Shown: in pieces, positions 3,795 through 16,015 of the stretch
Layout of the letters: each line of letters begins with the position of its first letter
Position numbering within the stretch: the first letter of the stretch is position 1
IMG/VR virus record: IMGVR_UViG_2851955134_000007
Source of the DNA: a virus
Taxonomy: Duplodnaviria > Heunggongvirae > Uroviricota > Caudoviricetes
Reading direction: 5' to 3' (one strand)
DNA: 16,015 nt
Notes under the pieces: model-generated
Databases searched by the model: none
What the model was told of the DNA's origin: nothing
The model's input: the letters and a program-made list of their open reading frames with translations, nothing else
Position numbers and translations under genes: made by a program

Positions 3795-4318
3795 CTATCA
3801 AATCAAATACGCCAGCACACGACAAGGACTGCTGGCAAACGCCGCTTTGGCTTTTTGATGCACTGGATATTGAGTTTGGATTCTGGCTGGATTCGGCAGC
3901 GAGCGACAAAAATGCTCTGTGTGCTCACTGGCTAACTGAGGCCGACGACGCGCTCAATTCTGAGTGGGTAAGCCACGGTGCAATCTGGAATAACCCACCG
4001 TACAGCAATATCAGGCCGTGGGTGGAAAAAGCCGCTGAGCAGTGCATACAACAGCGACAGACGGTAGTTATGCTTGTGCCAGAGGATATGTCAGTCGGAT
4101 GGTTCAGCAAGGCTCTGGAGAGTGTCGACGAAGTTCGCATTATCACTGATGGACGGATTAATTTTATCGAACCATCGACAGGGTTGGAGAAGAAGGGAAA
4201 CAGCAAAGGCTCCATGCTGCTGATTTGGCGACCGTTCATCAGTCCTCGACGGATGTTTACTACCGTATCCAAAGCGGCATTGATGGCGATCGGGCAGGGC
4301 GTCAGGAGGGCGGCATGA
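3791..4318 (+). CDS. Orphan DNA N6-adenine methyltransferase (phage Dam-like), about 175 aa
   Basis: [13 protein letters not shown] motif and the catalytic NPPY tetrapeptide (AIWNNPPYS). ATG overlaps the ninB stop (ATGA). No restriction endonuclease gene adjacent. Confidence 0.8.
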
Positions 4319-4491
4319 GGCGACAGCGACGAAGTTTCACCGACATCATCTGCGAAAACTGCAAATACCTTCCAACGAAACGCTCCAGAAATAAACGCAA
4401 GCCAATCCCAAAAGAATCTGACGTAAAAACCTTCAATTACACAGCTCACCTGTGGGATATCCGGTGGCTAAGATATCGTGCGAGGAAATGA
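4315..4491 (+). CDS. ninE: NinE, 58 aa
   Basis: [58 protein letters not shown] matches lambdoid NinE as recalled. GGAGGG RBS; ATG overlaps the methyltransferase stop. Confidence 0.8.
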
Positions 4492-4493
4492 CA

Positions 4494-4835
4494 ATGGATT
4501 ATTCACAGTTAAGTGATTTTGAAATTAACAGAATGGTAGGAGACATAATTTTTAAAGGCCTTTGGGCAAGTAAACCGGAAACATCAGGGAATAACATCAA
4601 CAAATGGTATTACGGAAATGCTGATACAACTTTTGAGCCATTAAATCATTTGCCTGACTACTGCAATGATCCGAGCGCTTCATGGCCGATTATTGAGAAA
4701 TACAGGATTTCTATCTTAGACCAGTTAACTGAATGGTGTGTGGATGCAAAAGGCGTAAGCCCAATATTTGATACCAGACCTCTCCGCGCCGCCATGATTG
4801 TCTTTCTCCTGATGCAGGAGGCCAATAATGCTTAG
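4494..4835 (+). CDS. Hypothetical nin-region protein, 113 aa ([22 protein letters not shown]...)
   Basis: ORF directly after ninE. Start taken at the second ATG (4494), 8 nt after GAGG; an alternative ATG at 4488 overlaps the ninE stop. No family recognised. Confidence 0.55.
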
Positions 4836-6043: not shown

Positions 6044-6190
6044 GGGGCGTTGAGACGCCCCCAAAAATAAAGGGTAATATATAACAGAAGGTTTATATAG
6101 TTAGAAGCAAGGTTGTGCTTCTAAAGGAAGTGGCTTGAGGGAGCCACTTATATGTTGGGGAGGCAAAGCCTCCCGCAACATATCTTTTTC
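6044..6190 (+). promoter_or_regulatory. Late-promoter / terminator region between Q and convergent nmpC
   Basis: Four inverted repeats: GGGGCGT-TGAG-ACGCCCC (6044-6061), GAAGCA-AGGTTG-TGCTTC (about 6104-6125), AAGTGGCT-TGAGGG-AGCCACTT (about 6128-6149) and a 34-nt near-palindrome (6150-6183) followed by CTTTTTC. Candidate -35 TTGAGA (6050-6055) and -10 TAATAT (6075-6080), spacing not optimal. Confidence 0.4.
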
Positions 6191-6199
6191 GTAATCAGA

Positions 6200-7160
6200 T
6201 TAGAACTGATACACCAGACCTACAGCGACGATGTCGTCGGTATCAATACCAGCTGTTTTGGTAAACTTACTATCGTCAATTAAGTTGATTTTGTAATCAA
6301 CAAAAGTGGACATGTTTTTATTAAAGTAGTAAGTAGCACCGACATCGACATACTTGACTAAGTCTCGGTCACCATGAACACCAAGGTCTTTACCTTTTGA
6401 CTGAAGGTAAGCAACAGATGGTCGCAGACCGAAGTCAAACTGATATTGTGCTACTGCTTCAAAGTTTTGTGCTTTGTTTGCAATATGGTTATTACCAAAA
6501 ACGGTCATATTCTGAGTTTCAGAATATGTGGTAGCCAGATAGATATTGTTCGCATCATATTTCAGGCCTGCAGCCCATACTTCCGCATTTTTGCCGGAGG
6601 CATTGAATTTGCTCTTACCATAGGCGACCTGACCGTCAGTGCGATCTGATTTAGCATAGGTTGCACCCACGCCGAATCCTTCATACTCATAAGTAGTGGA
6701 GAAACCGAAACCATCACCATTGGCTTCAGTTACGTCAGTGCGGTCATTTTTACCCTGATACTGAGCAGCAAAGTTCAGGCCATCGACCAGACCAAAGAAG
6801 TCGTTGTTACGATAGGTTGCAACACCAGTGGTGCGACCAGTCATGAACACATCTGTTTGGGTCCAGGTATCGCCACCGAATTCTGGCAGAACGTCAGTCC
6901 ACGCACCGATGTCGTATGCTACACCGTAGTTACGGCCGTAATCGATTGAGCCGTAGTCACCGAATTTCAGGCCTGCAAATGCAAGACGGGTTTTGTCTTT
7001 GGAGGAACCTTGAGATTCAGCGCGGTTGCCTTTGAATTCATATTCCCACTGACCGAAACCAGTCAGTTGATCGTTGATTTGGGTTTCACCTTTGAAGCCA
7101 AGACGGGCATAAGTAGTATCACCATCATCTGCATCGTTAGATGAAAAGTAGTGCTTGGCA
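6200..7160 (-). pseudogene. nmpC: Porin NmpC (OmpC/OmpD family), 3-prime portion from codon 44 to stop, cut off by IS10
   Basis: Translation ...[42 protein letters not shown]... to C-terminal ...VGLVYQF (terminal Phe typical of outer-membrane beta-barrels). The MRGSLSA start in the ORF track is read-through from the IS10 end, not a real start. Confidence 0.9.
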
Positions 7161-7173
7161 CTGAGAGATCCCC

Positions 7174-8382
7174 TCATAATTTCCCCAAAACGTAACCATG
7201 TGTGAATAGATTTTGAGTAAGCAGGGTTGCAGCCACGAGTGAGTCTTCCCTTGTTATTGTGTAGCCAGAATGCCGCAAAACTTCCATGCCTAAGCGAACT
7301 GTTGAGAGTACGTTTCGATTTCTGACTGTGTTAGCCTGGAAGTGCTTGTCCCAACCTTGTTTCTGAGCATGAACGCCCGCAAGCCAACATGTTAGTTGAA
7401 GCATCAGGGCGATTAGCAGCATGATATCAAAACGCTCTGAGCTGCTCGTTCGGCTATGGCGTAGGCCTAGTCCGTAGGCAGGACTTTTCAAGTCTCGGAA
7501 GGTTTCTTCAATCTGCATTCGCTTCGAATAGATATTAACAAGTTGTTTGGGTGTTCGAATTTCAACAGGTAAGTTAGTTGCTAGAATCCATGGCTCCTTT
7601 GCCGACGCTGAGTAGATTTTAGGTGACGGGTGGTGACAATGAGTCCGTGTCGAGCGCTGATTTTTTCGGCCTTTAGAGCGAGATTTATACAATAGAATTT
7701 GGCATGAGATTGGATTGCTTTTAGTCAGCCTCTTATAGCCTAAAGTCTTTGAGTGACTAGATGACATATCATGTAAGTTGCTGATAGGTTTCCAGTTTTC
7801 CGCTCCTAGGTCTGCATATTGTACTTTTCCTCTTACTCGACTTAACCAGTACCAACCCAGCTTCTCAACGGATTTATACCATGGCACTTTAAAGCCAGCA
7901 TCACTGACAATGAGCGGTGTGGTGTTACTCGGTAGAATGCTCGCAAGGTCGGCTAGAAATTGGTCATGAGCTTTCTTTGAACATTGCTCTGAAAGCGGGA
8001 ACGCTTTCTCATAAAGAGTAACAGAACGACCGTGTAGTGCGACTGAAGCTCGCAATACCATAAGCCGTTTTTGCTCACGGATATCAGACCAGTCAACAAG
8101 TACAATGGGCATCGTATTGCCCGAACAGATAAAGCTAGCATGCCAACGGTATACAGCGAGTCGCTCTTTGTGGAGGTGACGATTACCTAACAATCGGTCG
8201 ATTCGTTTGATGTTATGTTTTGTTCTCGCTTTGGTTGGCAGGTTACGGCCAAGTTCGGTAAGAGTGAGAGTTTTACAGTCAAGTAAGGCGTGGCAAGCCA
8301 ACGTTAAGCTGTTGAGTCGTTTTAAGTGTAATTCGGGGCAGAATTGGTAAAGAGAGTCGTGTAAAATATCGAGTTCGCACAT
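7174..8382 (-). CDS. tnp: IS10 transposase, 402 aa
   Basis: [71 protein letters not shown]... recognised as IS10/Tn10 transposase. Start 108 bp from the outside end, as in IS10. Confidence 0.95.
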
Positions 8383-10410: not shown

Positions 10411-10704
10411 TTATTGTGAGCAATACACACGCGCTTCCAGCGGAGTATAAATGCCTAAAGTAATAAAACCGAGCAATCCATTTACGAATGTTTGCTGGGT
10501 TTCTGTTTTAACAACATTTTCTGCGCCGCCACAAATTTTGGCTGCATCAACAGTTTTCTCCTGTCCAATTCCCGAAACGAAGAAGTGATGGGTGATGGTT
10601 TCCTTTGGTGTTACTGCTGTCGGTTTGTTTCCAACAGTAAACGTCTGTTGAGCACATCCTGTAATAAGCATTGCCAGAGCGGCAGAAAACAACATTTTTT
10701 TCAT
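10411..10704 (-). CDS. borD: Bor lipoprotein (serum-resistance-associated), 97 aa
   Basis: MKKMLFSAALAMLITGCAQQTFTVGNKPTAVTPKETITHHFFVSGIGQEK... with lipobox LITGC. Recognised as lambda Bor. Start at internal Met17 of the ORF-track ORF. Confidence 0.85.
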   Translation of the reverse strand: MKKMLFSAALAMLITGCAQQTFTVGNKPTAVTPKETITHHFFVSGIGQEKTVDAAKICGGAENVVKTETQQTFVNGLLGFITLGIYTPLEARVYCSQ

Positions 10705-11646: not shown

Positions 11647-12192
11647 ATGGAAGTCAACAAAAAGCAGCTGGCTGACATTTTCGGTGCGAGTATCCGTACC
11701 ATTCAGAACTGGCAGGAACAGGGAATGCCCGTTCTGCGAGGCGGTGGCAAGGGTAATGAGGTGCTTTATGACTCTGCCGCCGTTATAAGATGGTATGCCG
11801 AAAGGGATGCTGAAATTGAGAACGAAAAGCTGCGCCGGGAAGTTGAAGAACTGCGGCAGGCCAGCGAGACAGATCTCCAGCCAGGGGCTATTGAGTACGA
11901 ACGCCATCGACTTACGCGTGCGCAGGCCGACGCACAGGAGCTGAAAAATGCCAGAGACTCCGCTGAAGTGGTGGAAACCGCATTCTGTACTTTCGTGCTG
12001 TCGCGGATCGCAGGTGAAATTGCCAGTATTCTCGACGGGATCCCCCTGTCGGTGCAGCGGCGTTTTCCGGAACTGGAAAACCGACATGTTGATTTCCTGA
12101 AACGGGATATCATCAAAGCCATGAACAAAGCAGCCGCGCTGGATGAACTGATACCGGGGTTGCTGAGTGAATATATCGAACAGTCAGGTTAA
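11647..12192 (+). CDS. nohD: Terminase small subunit Nu1, 181 aa
   Basis: MEVNKKQLADIFGASIRTIQNWQEQGMPVLRGGGKGNEVLYDSAAVIRWYAERD... near-identical to lambda Nu1 as recalled. Confidence 0.9.
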   Translation: MEVNKKQLADIFGASIRTIQNWQEQGMPVLRGGGKGNEVLYDSAAVIRWYAERDAEIENEKLRREVEELRQASETDLQPGAIEYERHRLTRAQADAQELKNARDSAEVVETAFCTFVLSRIAGEIASILDGIPLSVQRRFPELENRHVDFLKRDIIKAMNKAAALDELIPGLLSEYIEQSG

Positions 12193-12378
12193 CAGGCTGC
12201 GGCATTTTGTCCGCGCCGGGCTTCGCTCACTGTTCAGGCCGGAGCCACAGACCGCCGTTGAATGGGCGGATGCTAATTACTATCTCCCGAAAGAATCCGC
12301 ATACCAGGAAGGGCGCTGGGAAACACTGCCCTTTCAGCGGGCCATCATGAATGCGATGGGCAGCGACTATAACTGTTA
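12167..12378 (+). pseudogene. A: Terminase large subunit A, N-terminal approx 66 codons only
   Basis: MNISNSQVNRLRHFVRAGLRSLFRPEPQTAVEWADANYYLPKESAYQEGRWETLPFQRAIMNAMGSDY matches the lambda gpA N-terminus; similarity ends after GSDY at about 12376-12380. GTG start overlapping the Nu1 3-prime end, as in lambda. Confidence 0.8.
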
Positions 12379-13295
12379 TTAATGAAAATCCGACAGCACA
12401 AGGATATCAGGCAATTGCTGTAAACACGAATGATGCTTACACCTGCCCGGCAGGTTCTTATACGACGATATCGTGTCTGACGAAAAGTGATAATTCCCGG
12501 TGTCGTGCAAGGTTCGGAAAAATGTCTGATAATGGTGCGTTTGTTTTTCATTCAGATGCAGTTCTGGATCCTGTTACGGGAAATGTTGTTCATGGAAATA
12601 ATGTGACGGTGACGGCAGAAAGAGTCGGTGAATGGTGGTTGTTTACCGCCACTCTTTTTGCAGATGCGGAAATGATAATCAGCTCAAGATTTGAAATCCT
12701 GGCGATGCCTGGAATCAGTATTATCCCCAATGGCTCTACGTTAGATATTGCGATGCCTCAGGCGGAGATTGGGTCGTACAGGACGTCATTTATCATTACT
12801 GAAGGGGCTCCTGGCACTCGCTCCAGCGACATGGTGACAATACCTGTAAGAAACAATATTCACCGATTACCATTCAGTGCTCTTGTTGAAGTTAATAAAA
12901 ACTGGGATATCCCTCCCAGCAAATCACCATTAATCTTTAATGTTAAAGATTATCAGGAAAATGGTCTGTTCACGCATGGATTCCGTGGTAATAATTTCTC
13001 TGATGCCGGTTCTCCTTTTATTTCTATGGGAGGGTGTAATAAATATGTGGCAACAACCCAGAGGAAAATCATTTCAGGCTTCCGTTGTGGCGCTGATGGA
13101 GATGTTCAGGCCGTATGTAATGGTGAATTATCTGTTGCGGCAAAAACAACATGGACTTCAATTGTTCCACGGGCAGTATTGCGAATTGGAGGGCAGGGCA
13201 CTAATGGGGAGTATCATCTTTTTGGTCATATCCGTAATCTGCGTATCTGGCATAAAGAATTAACTGATGCGCAAATGGGGGAGAGTATTAAATGA
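12379..13295 (+). pseudogene. C-terminal approx 305 codons of a receptor-binding / lectin-like (LamG-type jelly-roll) protein, probable tail-fibre remnant fused to the A fragment
   Basis: Frame of ORF 12351-13295. No native start: the ORF ATG is an out-of-frame codon inside the A fragment. C-terminal segment LRIGGQGTNGEYHLFGHIRNLRIWHKELTDAQM resembles the final strands of concanavalin-A-like LamG domains. Domain assignment is from motif recall only. Confidence 0.45.
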
Positions 13296-13573
13296 AAGAT
13301 TTAACACTCAAATTTGCAGACAGGGCCGACTTTTCGGCCTTTATGGAGAGTATTGGCTATTATGATGACGAGTCGATGCAGGATGATATTCTTATTGACG
13401 TGATAGGTAACGTGTACAAAGAAACCGGAGAACTGACTGAAGATGGCGAACCGGTATGTGTTAAGGAAGACGGATATTTTGTAAACGTGCGCATCATTAA
13501 TGATGTAAAAAAATCGTCAATATTCGATAAATACGCGGTTGTTGTTGAGCATCAACTTCGTGGCTGGATGTGA
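13292..13573 (+). CDS. Hypothetical acidic protein, 93 aa
   Basis: ATG overlaps the stop of the upstream fragment (ATGA). Rich in D/E, no TM segment or recognised motif. Confidence 0.5.
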   Translation: MKDLTLKFADRADFSAFMESIGYYDDESMQDDILIDVIGNVYKETGELTEDGEPVCVKEDGYFVNVRIINDVKKSSIFDKYAVVVEHQLRGWM

Positions 13574-13582
13574 GGGAGACAA

Positions 13583-14251
13583 ATGGCTACATCGACAGTA
13601 ATTCCAGGAGATATCACCACGCTAAAGGGAGATGTCAGTAAAACTAAGGAAGATATTTCCTCAATTAACGGAAAAGTATCAACGCTTCAGACTGATATGA
13701 CCAGTGCAAAGCAGGATATCAGCACCAGATACACAAAAACTGAAGTTGATAATAAGCTGAAAAACAAACTGGAAGTGAACGATCTGGAAAGCGGTCGTTA
13801 TGGTGGAGATTTTTACCCGTTGACTGGCCGTGAAGCGTTTTATATGTGGGGATTGGGCACGACTACAGCGGCGGCAAACCTTTATCTTAATCCTGACCCT
13901 GCAATTTCGTCTGTACTGCGGTCAACATCGTCTATTCGCTATAAACATTCAGTAGAGACGATAGATTCAGAGCACGCCGATCTCATTTTCAGGATGCGCC
14001 CTGTGTGGTACAGGTCGCAATGCGAAAATGACAGGCGTGACTGGGGATTCTACGGATTGATTGCCGAGGAAGTAGGAGAAATTGCCCCTCAGTTTGTACA
14101 CTGGCGACCAGCTAACGAAGATGATGCTCCTGAAGCTATTTCCAGCAATGGCCTTGTTGCCGAAGGTGTAATGTACGAACGTCTGGTTGTTCCACTGATT
14201 CACCATATCCAGAAGCTGACTGAAAGAGTTGATGAACTTGAGTCAGATTAA
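13583..14251 (+). CDS. Coiled-coil protein with C-terminal intramolecular-chaperone-like domain (peptidase S74-like), 222 aa
   Basis: GAGGGAG RBS 4-5 nt upstream. N-terminal heptad-like segment (DISSINGKVSTLQTDMTSAKQDIS). C-terminal region SSIRYKHSVETIDSEHADLIFRMRPVWYRSQ...GFYGLIAEEVGEIAPQFV...EGVMYERLVVPLIHHIQKLTERVDELE resembles the self-cleaving chaperone domain of tail fibres/endosialidases, from motif recall. Confidence 0.55.
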   Translation: MATSTVIPGDITTLKGDVSKTKEDISSINGKVSTLQTDMTSAKQDISTRYTKTEVDNKLKNKLEVNDLESGRYGGDFYPLTGREAFYMWGLGTTTAAANLYLNPDPAISSVLRSTSSIRYKHSVETIDSEHADLIFRMRPVWYRSQCENDRRDWGFYGLIAEEVGEIAPQFVHWRPANEDDAPEAISSNGLVAEGVMYERLVVPLIHHIQKLTERVDELESD

Positions 14252-14256
14252 AGTTG

Positions 14257-14286
14257 TTATCCGTTTCCCGAAGCGATATCGGATAA
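14257..14286 (+). promoter_or_regulatory. Inverted repeat TTATCCG-N16-CGGATAA just upstream of the RBS of the 97 aa ORF
   Basis: Perfect 7-bp arms at 14257-14263 and 14280-14286; the spacer contains the palindrome CGATATCG. Right arm abuts the AAGGAGG Shine-Dalgarno (14286-14292). Confidence 0.35.
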
Positions 14287-14296
14287 AGGAGGAGTA

Positions 14297-14590
14297 ATGG
14301 ATATAACACCTTTCCTTCATGCGCTTTGTGCTGTGGCTGCGCAGCTACTGATTGGTCTTTTTACCGGGAACTGGGCTTACGGGGCGATAGCCGGTTGTAC
14401 GTTCTTCATTGCGCGTGAACACACCCAGGCAGAATATCGCTGGATCGAAATGTTCGGGCATGGCAAGCGAATGAATATGCCGTGGTGGGGCGGTTTTGAT
14501 ACACGTGCATGGGATGTGGCAAGCCTGATGGATTTTGCTGTGCCGGTGGTGGCGTGTCTGCTGGTCTGGCTGTTGGTTAATCGTGGGTGA
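14297..14590 (+). CDS. Hypothetical small membrane protein, 97 aa, predicted 2-3 TM helices
   Basis: Strong RBS AAGGAGG 4 nt before the ATG. Hydrophobic segments FLHALCAVAAQLLIGLFTGNWAYGAIAGCTFFIA and ASLMDFAVPVVACLLVWLLV. Confidence 0.5.
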   Translation: MDITPFLHALCAVAAQLLIGLFTGNWAYGAIAGCTFFIAREHTQAEYRWIEMFGHGKRMNMPWWGGFDTRAWDVASLMDFAVPVVACLLVWLLVNRG

Positions 14591-15265
14591 AAAAAGGTGA
14601 GCTGTATATGCAACGGAGGAAGAAAACTCGTTGCTGGAAGCCTGGAAAAAGTATCGGGTGCTGCTAAACCGTGTGGACACTTCCGTAGCACCAGATATCG
14701 AGTGGCTTATTCAACCATAATAAACAGTATGTATATCATAGGTTATTAATTGTGAGTTTTTTCGGTGTGTTATTTGTTTGTTTGATGTTATGCTTTTGCG
14801 CCCCAAAAGGTTGTTTAGATGTATTTTATCAATTGATTTTCAATGTCGTTTAATAAAGAAAAATTAAGCAAGCTGGATGTTGGTTTTTTGTTAATTGAAT
14901 GGTTCTAATAATGTTTTTTTACTGTTGTTGAATGTGACTTGATAAGAAATGCAAGTAAAAATGATACTCTTTTTATTTTAAATTCAAACGGTTGACATAT
15001 ATATAGCAAGAGGTTTCAGGTGCGTTGTAGTGAGTTTATGTTAATAAAAAGTATAGTAAGCGTTGAAAAATGTAACTTTGAAATACGTTAGAATAAAAAA
15101 CAATATACATATAATAATTTAATCTTAAATGAAATTTATTAAAATTTGCAAACTATAATTTTGTGTATAAAAATATAAATGCACATCATCCTGATTATGA
15201 TTGTGTATTTAATTGGTTGTTATTTGACTGCTATCAACTTGTTTTAATTTTATGATAGGTGCAAG

Positions 15266-16015
15266 ATGGATTATGTTTGCTCCGTAGTTTTCATCTGTCA
15301 ATCATTTGATTTAATTATAAACAGGAGAGTTATCTCGTTCAAAAAAAATTCATTGTTTATTGTAAGCGACAAAATTAGAAGGGAGTTACCAGTATGCCCC
15401 TCTAAACTAAGAATTGTTGATATAGATAAGAAAACATGTTTATCCTTTTTTATCGACGTGAATAATGAGCTGCCTGGCAAATTTACTCTTGATAAGAATG
15501 GCTATATTGCTGAAGAGGAACCTCCATTATCGCTTGTTTTTTCTCTGTTTGAAGGGATTAAAATAGCAGACTCACACTCCCTTTGGTTAAAAGAAAGACT
15601 ATGTATATCCTTACTTGCCATGTTCAAAAAACGCGAAAGTGTAAATTCATTTATACTAACAAATATAAATACATTTACCTGTAAAATTACTGGAATAATC
15701 AGTTTTAATATTGAGCGGCAATGGCATTTAAAAGATATTGCGGAATTAATTTATACGAGTGAAAGTTTAATAAAAAAAAGATTAAGGGATGAAGGAACGT
15801 CATTTACTGAAATATTGAGAGATACTAGGATGAGGTATGCAAAAAAACTCATAACTTCAAACTCTTATTCTATCAATGTCGTAGCCCAGAAATGTGGCTA
15901 TAACAGTACTTCATATTTCATATGTGCATTTAAAGATTATTATGGTGTCACGCCATCTCATTATTTTGAGAAAATAATCGGCGTCACAGATGGAATAAAC
16001 AAAACAATTGACTGA
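15266..16015 (+). CDS. appY: AraC-family transcriptional activator AppY, 249 aa
   Basis: [56 protein letters not shown]... with C-terminal AraC-type HTH ([28 protein letters not shown]). Recognised as E. coli AppY. Very AT-rich gene and upstream region. Confidence 0.9.

Follow-up and report, generated by a model that had tools for sequence, protein, structure and literature searches.

Three closely packed open reading frames (ORFs) at positions 13292-14590 of IMG/VR virus record IMGVR_UViG_2851955134_000007 raise the question of whether they form an undescribed genetic module or are what remains of a familiar one. An earlier note, made from the letters of this 16,015-nucleotide (nt) stretch alone (the whole stretch is referred to here as the window), favoured the first view and named receptor blocking and superinfection exclusion as examples of what such a cassette might do. 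What the window contains is a cryptic prophage of the DLP12 type, located at argU/intD, and the three genes are very probably the 3' end of a lateral (side) tail-fibre module, a right-hand remnant in this lambdoid prophage and not an independent cassette. The apparent mystery cassette would then be the decayed end of a tail-fibre module, ordinary in origin; the interest that remains is in two uncharacterised accessory families, chiefly that of a 97 amino acid (aa) membrane protein. The argument turns on the following features.

12369-13295, + strand: 3' remnant of stf (side tail fibre), last ~308 codons (PHROG 1419 'tail protein', positions 474-793 of 793, E 1e-81)
13292-13573, + strand: acidic 93 aa lateral-tail-fibre accessory protein (PHROG 1361), its start coupled to the stf stop by ATGA
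13583-14251, + strand: short second tail fibre, 222 aa here and 234 aa when intact (Pfam PF13884; PHROG 3299, 454 and 1699, tail-fibre C-termini)
14297-14590, + strand: 97 aa three-helix membrane protein (PHROG 1443; motif (A/G)REHxQAEYRWI...NMPWWGGFD)

The locus in intact phages

All three ORFs were found exactly where the earlier note placed them and with the good translation signals it described. The 93 aa protein is acidic (isoelectric point 4.3) and its start codon overlaps the upstream stop, while the 97 aa protein has three hydrophobic helices and a strong Shine-Dalgarno sequence of its own (AAGGAGGAG, 14286-14294). Ratios of non-synonymous to synonymous substitution (dN/dS) among prophage alleles are 0.33 for the 93 aa gene, 0.135 for the second fibre and 0.14 for the 97 aa gene, and the trio thus consists of genuine genes under purifying selection. 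The description of the proteins as uncharacterised holds for the 93 aa and 97 aa products, which fall into PHROG families of unknown function, but not for the middle ORF, which is a tail fibre; literature searches via accession numbers, phage 21 and the ECOR phages returned nothing on the trio proteins.

The proposal that the three genes constitute a separate module does not stand, as they are co-linear parts of tail-fibre loci in PhiR49_1, 2G7b and phage 21, all of which are intact plaque-forming lambdoid phages, and at the DLP12 site of Escherichia coli B. Such co-linearity in intact relatives, which the earlier note had itself named as the finding that would count against a new module, is therefore largely what is seen. 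In contrast, the note was right that the region differs from the tail-fibre-assembly remnants of K-12. The gene orders are as follows.

PhiR49_1: J, lom, Stf (812 aa), 93 aa, 234 aa, 97 aa, ybcY, tfa ... ompT
2G7b: tail protein (791 aa), 93 aa, 345 aa fibre, 99 aa
Phage 21: Stf (686 aa), 92 aa, 97 aa membrane protein, with no middle fibre
E. coli B REL606, DLP12 site: nohD, J fragment, intact 781 aa Stf, 93 aa, 234 aa, 97 aa, tfa fragment, appY, ompT
E. coli K-12, DLP12 site: aaaD, tfaD, ybcY, tfaX

In the intact late operon, J and lom are followed by Stf (674-812 aa), the 93 aa gene, an optional second fibre of about 234 or about 346 aa, and the 97 aa gene. The optional nature of the fibre is apparent from a survey of 162 loci, mostly from IMG/VR, in which the gap between the 93 aa and 97 aa genes is 727 nt in 80 loci with a 234 aa-type fibre, about 1095-1099 nt in 56 loci with a fibre of ~346 aa, and 18 nt in seven loci with no fibre.

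The first part of this arrangement is shared with virulent phages. A long fibre, a 92/93 aa gene and a second fibre occur in this order in the Nonagvirus ESCO3, the T5-like phage IrisVonRoten (796, 92 and 574 aa) and the T1-like phage SLUR29 (655, 92 and 245 aa), as well as in Drexlerviridae, Dhillonvirus and Queuovirinae of the BASEL collection; in these virulent siphovirus loci conservation of the distal subunits is confined to their extreme N-termini and, unlike in the trio, the 97 aa membrane gene is lacking. Because the 93 aa protein and the second fibre are encoded within lateral-fibre loci of virulent phages, we regard them as virion or assembly parts and not as defence functions. The 93 aa protein of this lambdoid prophage is 92% identical to that of the virulent, 9g-like ESCO3 (positions 6079-6357 of locus L005), and the two share a conserved DNA block made up of ~80 nt from the end of stf, the 93 aa gene and ~65 nt from the start of the second fibre gene; together these suggest that temperate and virulent phages have recently exchanged fibre cassettes. 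Stf, the 93 aa protein and the second fibre can thus be viewed as a lateral-fibre module that is freely exchanged across temperate and virulent coliphages.

The Stf remnant and the 93 aa accessory protein

The stf remnant is 100% identical to the C-terminus of intact 781 aa Stf proteins and gives profile matches to a weak LamG-like end and a gene transfer agent (GTA) spike-fibre domain, with no match in Protein Data Bank (PDB) sequence-profile searches. The prophage tail-fibre N-terminal domain PF08400 is absent from the window, in which the N-terminal ~467 codons of stf are deleted; it is present in a related locus, and the intact Stf of REL606 is annotated as 'prophage tail fiber N-terminal domain-containing protein'. 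The frame of the remnant differs from that of the terminase gene A fragment that now precedes it, and a listed 314 aa ORF (12351-13295) is therefore a fusion artefact. A 107 aa ORF in an alternative frame of the remnant (12940-13263, + strand) is most likely a spurious overlapping ORF, since it also lies inside the intact stf genes of relatives (for example at 4275-4598 of locus L016).

Members of the 93 aa family were found in 183 phage records from temperate and virulent coliphages, always under or next to tail-fibre annotations, and in intact phages the gene overlaps or directly abuts the stf stop codon. Among 86 non-redundant modules, identity of the 93 aa protein follows that of the last 40 aa of Stf (Spearman 0.65) far more closely than that of the variable Stf body (0.18) or the second fibre (0.29), and the protein is retained in phage 21, where the second fibre is missing. 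These sequence relationships suggest that the protein probably helps fibres to assemble or serves as a distal adaptor, in either case at the conserved C-terminus of Stf. Its AlphaFold2 (AF2) model is a small alpha/beta fold (predicted local distance difference test, pLDDT, 83); there was no Pfam or NCBIfam match at E<=0.1, and a PDB profile search was empty. As an accessory protein to which no role has been assigned, it is of importance for the engineering of host range.

The second fibre

The middle ORF had been described as a 222 aa protein with an N-terminal coiled coil and a C-terminal region resembling the self-cleaving chaperone of tail fibres. Both domains are borne out, but the length is that of a frameshifted 234 aa gene. 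Residues 116-172 match Peptidase_S74 (PF13884) at 27.3 bits against a cut-off of 22, the 346 aa allele scores 52.8 bits for the same domain, and a Ser...Lys dyad (S-x4-K) is present as S116 and K121 on profile positions 1 and 6. The C-terminal part aligns with the chaperone domain of LtfA from phage DT57C (PDB 8hqz_d, E 2e-8), with TSSIRYK placed opposite TSGIEYK, such that the predicted cleavage motifs are TS|SIRYK and TS|GIEYK. Residues 7-65 align with the coiled coil of the P22 gp26 needle and with repeats of DT57C LtfA, and alleles of the second fibre differ by a seven-residue (heptad) deletion. A stretch of ~20-25 aa at the N-terminus, M(A/V)T(S/K)TVIPxDIxxLKxD, is conserved and common to the 234 aa and 346 aa alleles.

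The frameshift and a nearby repeat account for two further details of this gene.

14247: 1 bp deletion (AA to A) causing a frameshift, from alignment to NZ_CP024275
14257-14263 and 14280-14286: 7 nt inverted repeat TTATCCG/CGGATAA, inside the coding tail of the intact 234 aa gene

The deletion removes the last 13 residues of the 234 aa fibre, leaving the C-terminal helical end of the chaperone incomplete here and complete in relatives. As all 664 complete E. coli genomes in which this 3' end is present lack the deletion, it is either a private mutation or a sequencing error. The palindrome noted upstream of the 97 aa gene does exist as the 7 nt inverted repeat, although what it occupies is the coding tail of the intact fibre gene; a role as a regulatory site was rejected, the repeat being coding sequence in all intact alleles.

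The 97 aa membrane protein

The family of the 97 aa protein yields 453 clusters at 90% and 348 representatives at 50% identity, and all members are about 95-105 aa long. Six positions are invariant (R40, E41, Q44, A45, W72 and P83) and three more almost so (H8, E46 and R48), with the polar motif strictly conserved across alpha-, beta- and gammaproteobacteria. The AF2 model consists of three long, mostly hydrophobic helices (pLDDT 93). No consistent Pfam, NCBIfam or PDB relative was identified for the family; one of 46 homologues gives a marginal match to Phage_holin_8 (E 0.0036). A positive-inside count is ambiguous, the loop at 40-73 having 5.3 K+R but 4.3 D+E, and there is no lipobox, as Leu10 precedes Cys11 and Cys11 is unconserved in the family. 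Within E. coli prophages the protein is 93% conserved on average and shows no correlation with either fibre (about 0), which argues against both a fibre-specific chaperone and a receptor-matched blocker.

Its genomic position is consistent across very different phages (lambda-, P22-, P2- and DGR-type, the last named for diversity-generating retroelements), in which the gene lies directly 3' of the last fibre or tailspike gene and often overlaps it. In the P22-like JEP4 it stands between the tailspike gene and int, the position at which P22 carries gtrABC; in the P2-like phiHAP-1 it stands between the fibre-assembly gene and that for sheath FI, where P2 carries Z/fun. It follows an S74 fibre in an Aeromonas P2-like prophage and a J-like protein in Comamonas prophages, and is located just upstream of a bAvd gene in two DGR-type prophages. 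ESCO3, IrisVonRoten and SLUR29, virulent phages in which the other parts of the module are present, lack the gene, whereas Aeromonas phages of ~235 kb, which are probably virulent, have it.

The bAvd-linked homologues, from Comamonas nitrativorans and Pigmentiphaga humi (L198 and L200; 8305-8688), lie immediately upstream of this DGR accessory protein gene and follow a protein of ~370-380 aa that may be the fibre-type target of the retroelement.

Outside phages, homologues are found beside genes for KdsA (3-deoxy-D-manno-octulosonate (Kdo)-8-P synthase), a KpsF-family arabinose-5-P isomerase, a KpsC/S-like Capsule_synth protein and a Wza/KpsD-like exporter. These associations occur, with differing gene orders, in five alphaproteobacterial lineages: Devosia, Novosphingobium, Sphingomonas humi, an uncultured clade and metagenomic contigs. 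Kps-like loci with such homologues include 2652-9655 of L201 (a Devosia metagenome-assembled genome) and 1674-2675 of L202, as well as L223, L227/L228, L167 and L240. The other ~23 alphaproteobacterial loci share no second common theme, their neighbours including LigA, FtsZ, penicillin-binding proteins and GT4.

We tentatively suggest that the 97 aa protein may be an inner-membrane protein linked to tail fibres that acts on a conserved process of the cell envelope, possibly the assembly of surface glycans. A more specific version, that it is the phage-borne founder of an undescribed three-helix family whose native role is in the assembly of Kdo-linked polysaccharide (capsule or lipopolysaccharide, LPS), captured by at least four phage architectures to remodel the glycan that their fibres recognise, seems to us rather unlikely; if true, its capture would serve to convert lysogens, to exclude phages or to keep progeny from being re-adsorbed. 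Either way, the family is strongly conserved and tied by position both to phage receptor-binding genes and to alphaproteobacterial Kdo/capsule loci, and because BL21/REL606 carry the gene and the DLP12 site of K-12 does not, its role is readily testable.

A proposed branched fibre and its relationship to known systems

In an intact phage, the lambda-type N-terminus of Stf anchors the fibre to the tail, and the 93 aa protein would act on the extreme C-terminus of Stf as an assembly factor or distal adaptor. By analogy with the DT57C LtfA/LtfB pair, the second fibre would trimerise, cut off its own chaperone at Ser116 to leave a fibre of ~115 aa, and probably dock on Stf to give a branched fibre. 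The 97 aa protein would be made together with the fibres but may act on a host envelope process, possibly a surface glycan (Kdo, capsule or LPS), rather than on the fibre. The module in the window cannot build such a fibre: what is left of stf is an out-of-frame 3' piece, and a frameshift shortens the second fibre.

Published work on distal fibre subunits describes conservation only at the N-terminal docking end, and attachment of DT57C LtfB via LtfA to form a branched fibre (PMC8594841, PMC4728585, PMC10713586), and the conserved N-terminus of the second fibre fits both. In T5-like DT57C/DT571-2 (LtfA and LtfB) and in phiEco32 (gp14 and gp15), as here, a long tail-anchored first fibre is accompanied by a separately encoded second fibre. 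DT57C-type fibres also share the conserved N-terminus of the second fibre, which is a docking segment there and by analogy may be one here, the C-terminal pfam13884 self-cleaving chaperone, and highly mosaic alleles that differ by in-register deletions. Unlike them, Stf ends in a LamG-like rather than an S74 region, a 93 aa gene is situated between the fibre genes, and the second fibre is very short, at about 115 aa after the predicted cleavage.

The comparison with lambda Stf/Tfa is instructive in a different respect. The slot after J and lom is the same, a small gene is found directly behind stf, and relatives share the Stf N-terminus (MAVKISGVLKDG...) and Pfam phage_tail_N, the type of the tail anchor. 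However, the distal half is unrelated to that of lambda Stf and ends here in a variable LamG-like region, the 93 aa protein has no Tfa (Caudovirales tail fibre assembly) domain, and a second fibre and a membrane protein follow. The 97 aa gene for its part resembles P2 Z/fun, P22 gtrABC, phi80/T1 Cor and T5 Llp as a gene for a small envelope protein 3' of a fibre or tailspike gene, but the protein has neither sequence nor fold similarity to these conversion and exclusion proteins and is not a lipoprotein, and, unlike independent morons, its gene is translationally coupled to a fibre gene.

Several observations weigh against parts of this picture. The docking of the second fibre on Stf is taken from analogy only. 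The 93 aa protein matches no known Tfa or gp38 chaperone family, and a fold search with its model gave no informative structural match; searches with the 97 aa model recovered only generic helical bundles and were equally uninformative. The Kdo/capsule link involves only about five of about 28 non-phage loci, the remainder being heterogeneous, and in some Comamonas/Acidovorax prophages the 97 aa gene precedes a lysozyme gene.

Alternative explanations

Whatever the origin of the module, there is about an even chance that in this strain the trio is inert debris, neither expressed nor selected, and spared by chance when the DLP12 deletions stopped short. This site has undergone independent deletions in K-12, B and the present lineage, the reading frame of the stf remnant does not continue that of the A fragment, and a private frameshift affects the second fibre. 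A scan of the trio for promoters and terminators found none above chance on the + strand, and the idea that the genes have a promoter of their own, as a moron would, was dropped for this reason; any expression of the 93 aa and 97 aa genes would need read-through from the QuuD-dependent late promoter. Such late read-through is possible, since QuuD and the late lysis genes are intact upstream. Both genes are also intact, their products identical to those of enterotoxigenic E. coli (ETEC) and of B (REL606), although at 99.9% DNA identity this is weak evidence against decay. Promoter-like matches, on either strand, are confined in this region to 14750-15265, a very AT-rich spacer of 0.5 kb upstream of appY.

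It is possible, though we consider it doubtful, that the 97 aa protein alone is a factor for lysogenic conversion or superinfection exclusion, which would alter or block surface-glycan assembly (Kdo-linked capsule or LPS) or block an entry step, so that carrier cells or the debris of lysed cells would adsorb fewer phages. To this extent, and on genomic context, the protein stays a candidate for a surface-modifying or exclusion role of the kind that the earlier note considered for the cassette. The conversion slots occupied in JEP4 and phiHAP-1, absence of the gene from the virulent phages sharing the module, lack of co-variation with the fibres, conservation of the polar motif across three proteobacterial classes, and homologues in kps-like clusters of five lineages with differing gene orders are all consistent with such a function. 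However, a search with PADLOC revealed no homology to a known exclusion or defence protein, and coupling to late structural genes with no promoter of its own makes expression in a lysogen doubtful; moreover, the gene occurs in the large and probably virulent Aeromonas phages, and most of its non-phage contexts are unrelated to glycans.

That the 97 aa protein is instead a holin-like or lysis-accessory membrane protein is very improbable. It is small with three hydrophobic helices, a Phage_lysozyme gene is positioned within about 100-300 nt downstream in three Comamonas/Acidovorax prophages that were checked, and there is the one marginal Phage_holin_8 match; but the lysis genes of the window (essD-rrrD-rzpD) are 4.5 kb upstream, before nohD, the polar loop is strongly conserved and the C-terminal tail is not highly charged, and chromosomal copies occur in kps and housekeeping contexts. 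A strongly conserved polar loop is atypical of holins, and P22- and P2-type phages typically keep complete lysis cassettes elsewhere.

The notion with which the inquiry began, that all three genes together make up a cassette dedicated to anti-phage defence or receptor blocking, is scarcely credible. In its favour, the genes are closely packed, have good ribosome-binding sites, include one for a membrane protein and lie at the end of a prophage near morons such as appY and ompT, but two of the three genes belong to lateral-fibre loci of strictly virulent phages, the middle gene encodes a fibre with an autoproteolytic-type chaperone domain, the unit is optional (phage 21 dispenses with its middle gene), there is no promoter or terminator within it, and PADLOC gave no defence-model match for any of the four proteins at E<=0.1.

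Deletion junction and flanking genes

The earlier note had placed the trio between a deletion scar and appY; the order is right, but the stf remnant intervenes on one side and a fragment of a tail fibre assembly (Tfa) protein on the other. The remaining features of this part of the window are listed below.

11647-12192, + strand: nohD, Nu1-type terminase small subunit, left of the scar (Pfam Phage_Nu1, E 1e-100; named nohD in near-identical genomes)
12167-12370, + strand: 5' fragment of the terminase large subunit gene A, about 68 codons (PHROG terminase large subunit families; a pseudogene in the annotation of relatives)
12369-12371: deletion junction (scar) from terminase A to mid-stf, with 1-2 nt of microhomology
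14610-14720, + strand: tfaX-like C-terminal fragment of a tail fibre assembly protein, 36 codons, from translation ('partial tail fiber assembly protein' in relatives)
15266-16015, + strand: appY (annotation in near-identical genomes)

The scar was mapped by a three-way DNA comparison of the window, gene A of phage 2G7b and the intact stf in L016. Gene A of 2G7b matches the window base for base up to about 12369, and mid-stf sequence begins at 12369, so that terminase A codon ~68 is joined out of frame to stf codon ~468. The scar lies ~920 bp upstream of the trio, the stf remnant filling the gap, and the Tfa fragment separates the 97 aa gene from appY. At least three different deletions are now apparent at the terminase/tail boundary of DLP12: that in the window joins A to mid-stf, that in E. 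coli B joins nohD to a J fragment, and that in K-12 joins aaaD to tfaD. The junctions that were compared are at 12369-12371 in the window, 15383-15453 in L249 and 5355-6098 in L253. The window, B and K-12 are three different deletion derivatives of one ancestral phage, trimmed independently.

The region from 12100 to 14900 is present at 99.9% identity in 117 complete E. coli genomes, chiefly ETEC O6:H16 and relatives, from which the window differs at two places, a Tyr-to-Cys change at 14022 and the 1 bp deletion at 14247. The overall gene order of the window is quuD, an nmpC-type porin gene, essD-rrrD-rzpD, iss/bor, ylcI, nohD, the trio region and appY. At 10411-10704 (- strand) there is a bor homologue, which near-identical genomes annotate as the 'increased serum survival' lipoprotein Iss. 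On the - strand at 6200-8382, a 402 aa ORF (7174-8382), which we take to be the IS10 transposase, abuts a 325 aa C-terminal piece of an OmpC-like porin (6200-7177), and this segment is presumably an insertion of IS10 into the DLP12 nmpC-type porin gene. The porin gene is interrupted by other insertion sequences in K-12 and REL606 (IS1 in REL606), and is intact in TUM9803 and ETEC M9682-C1.

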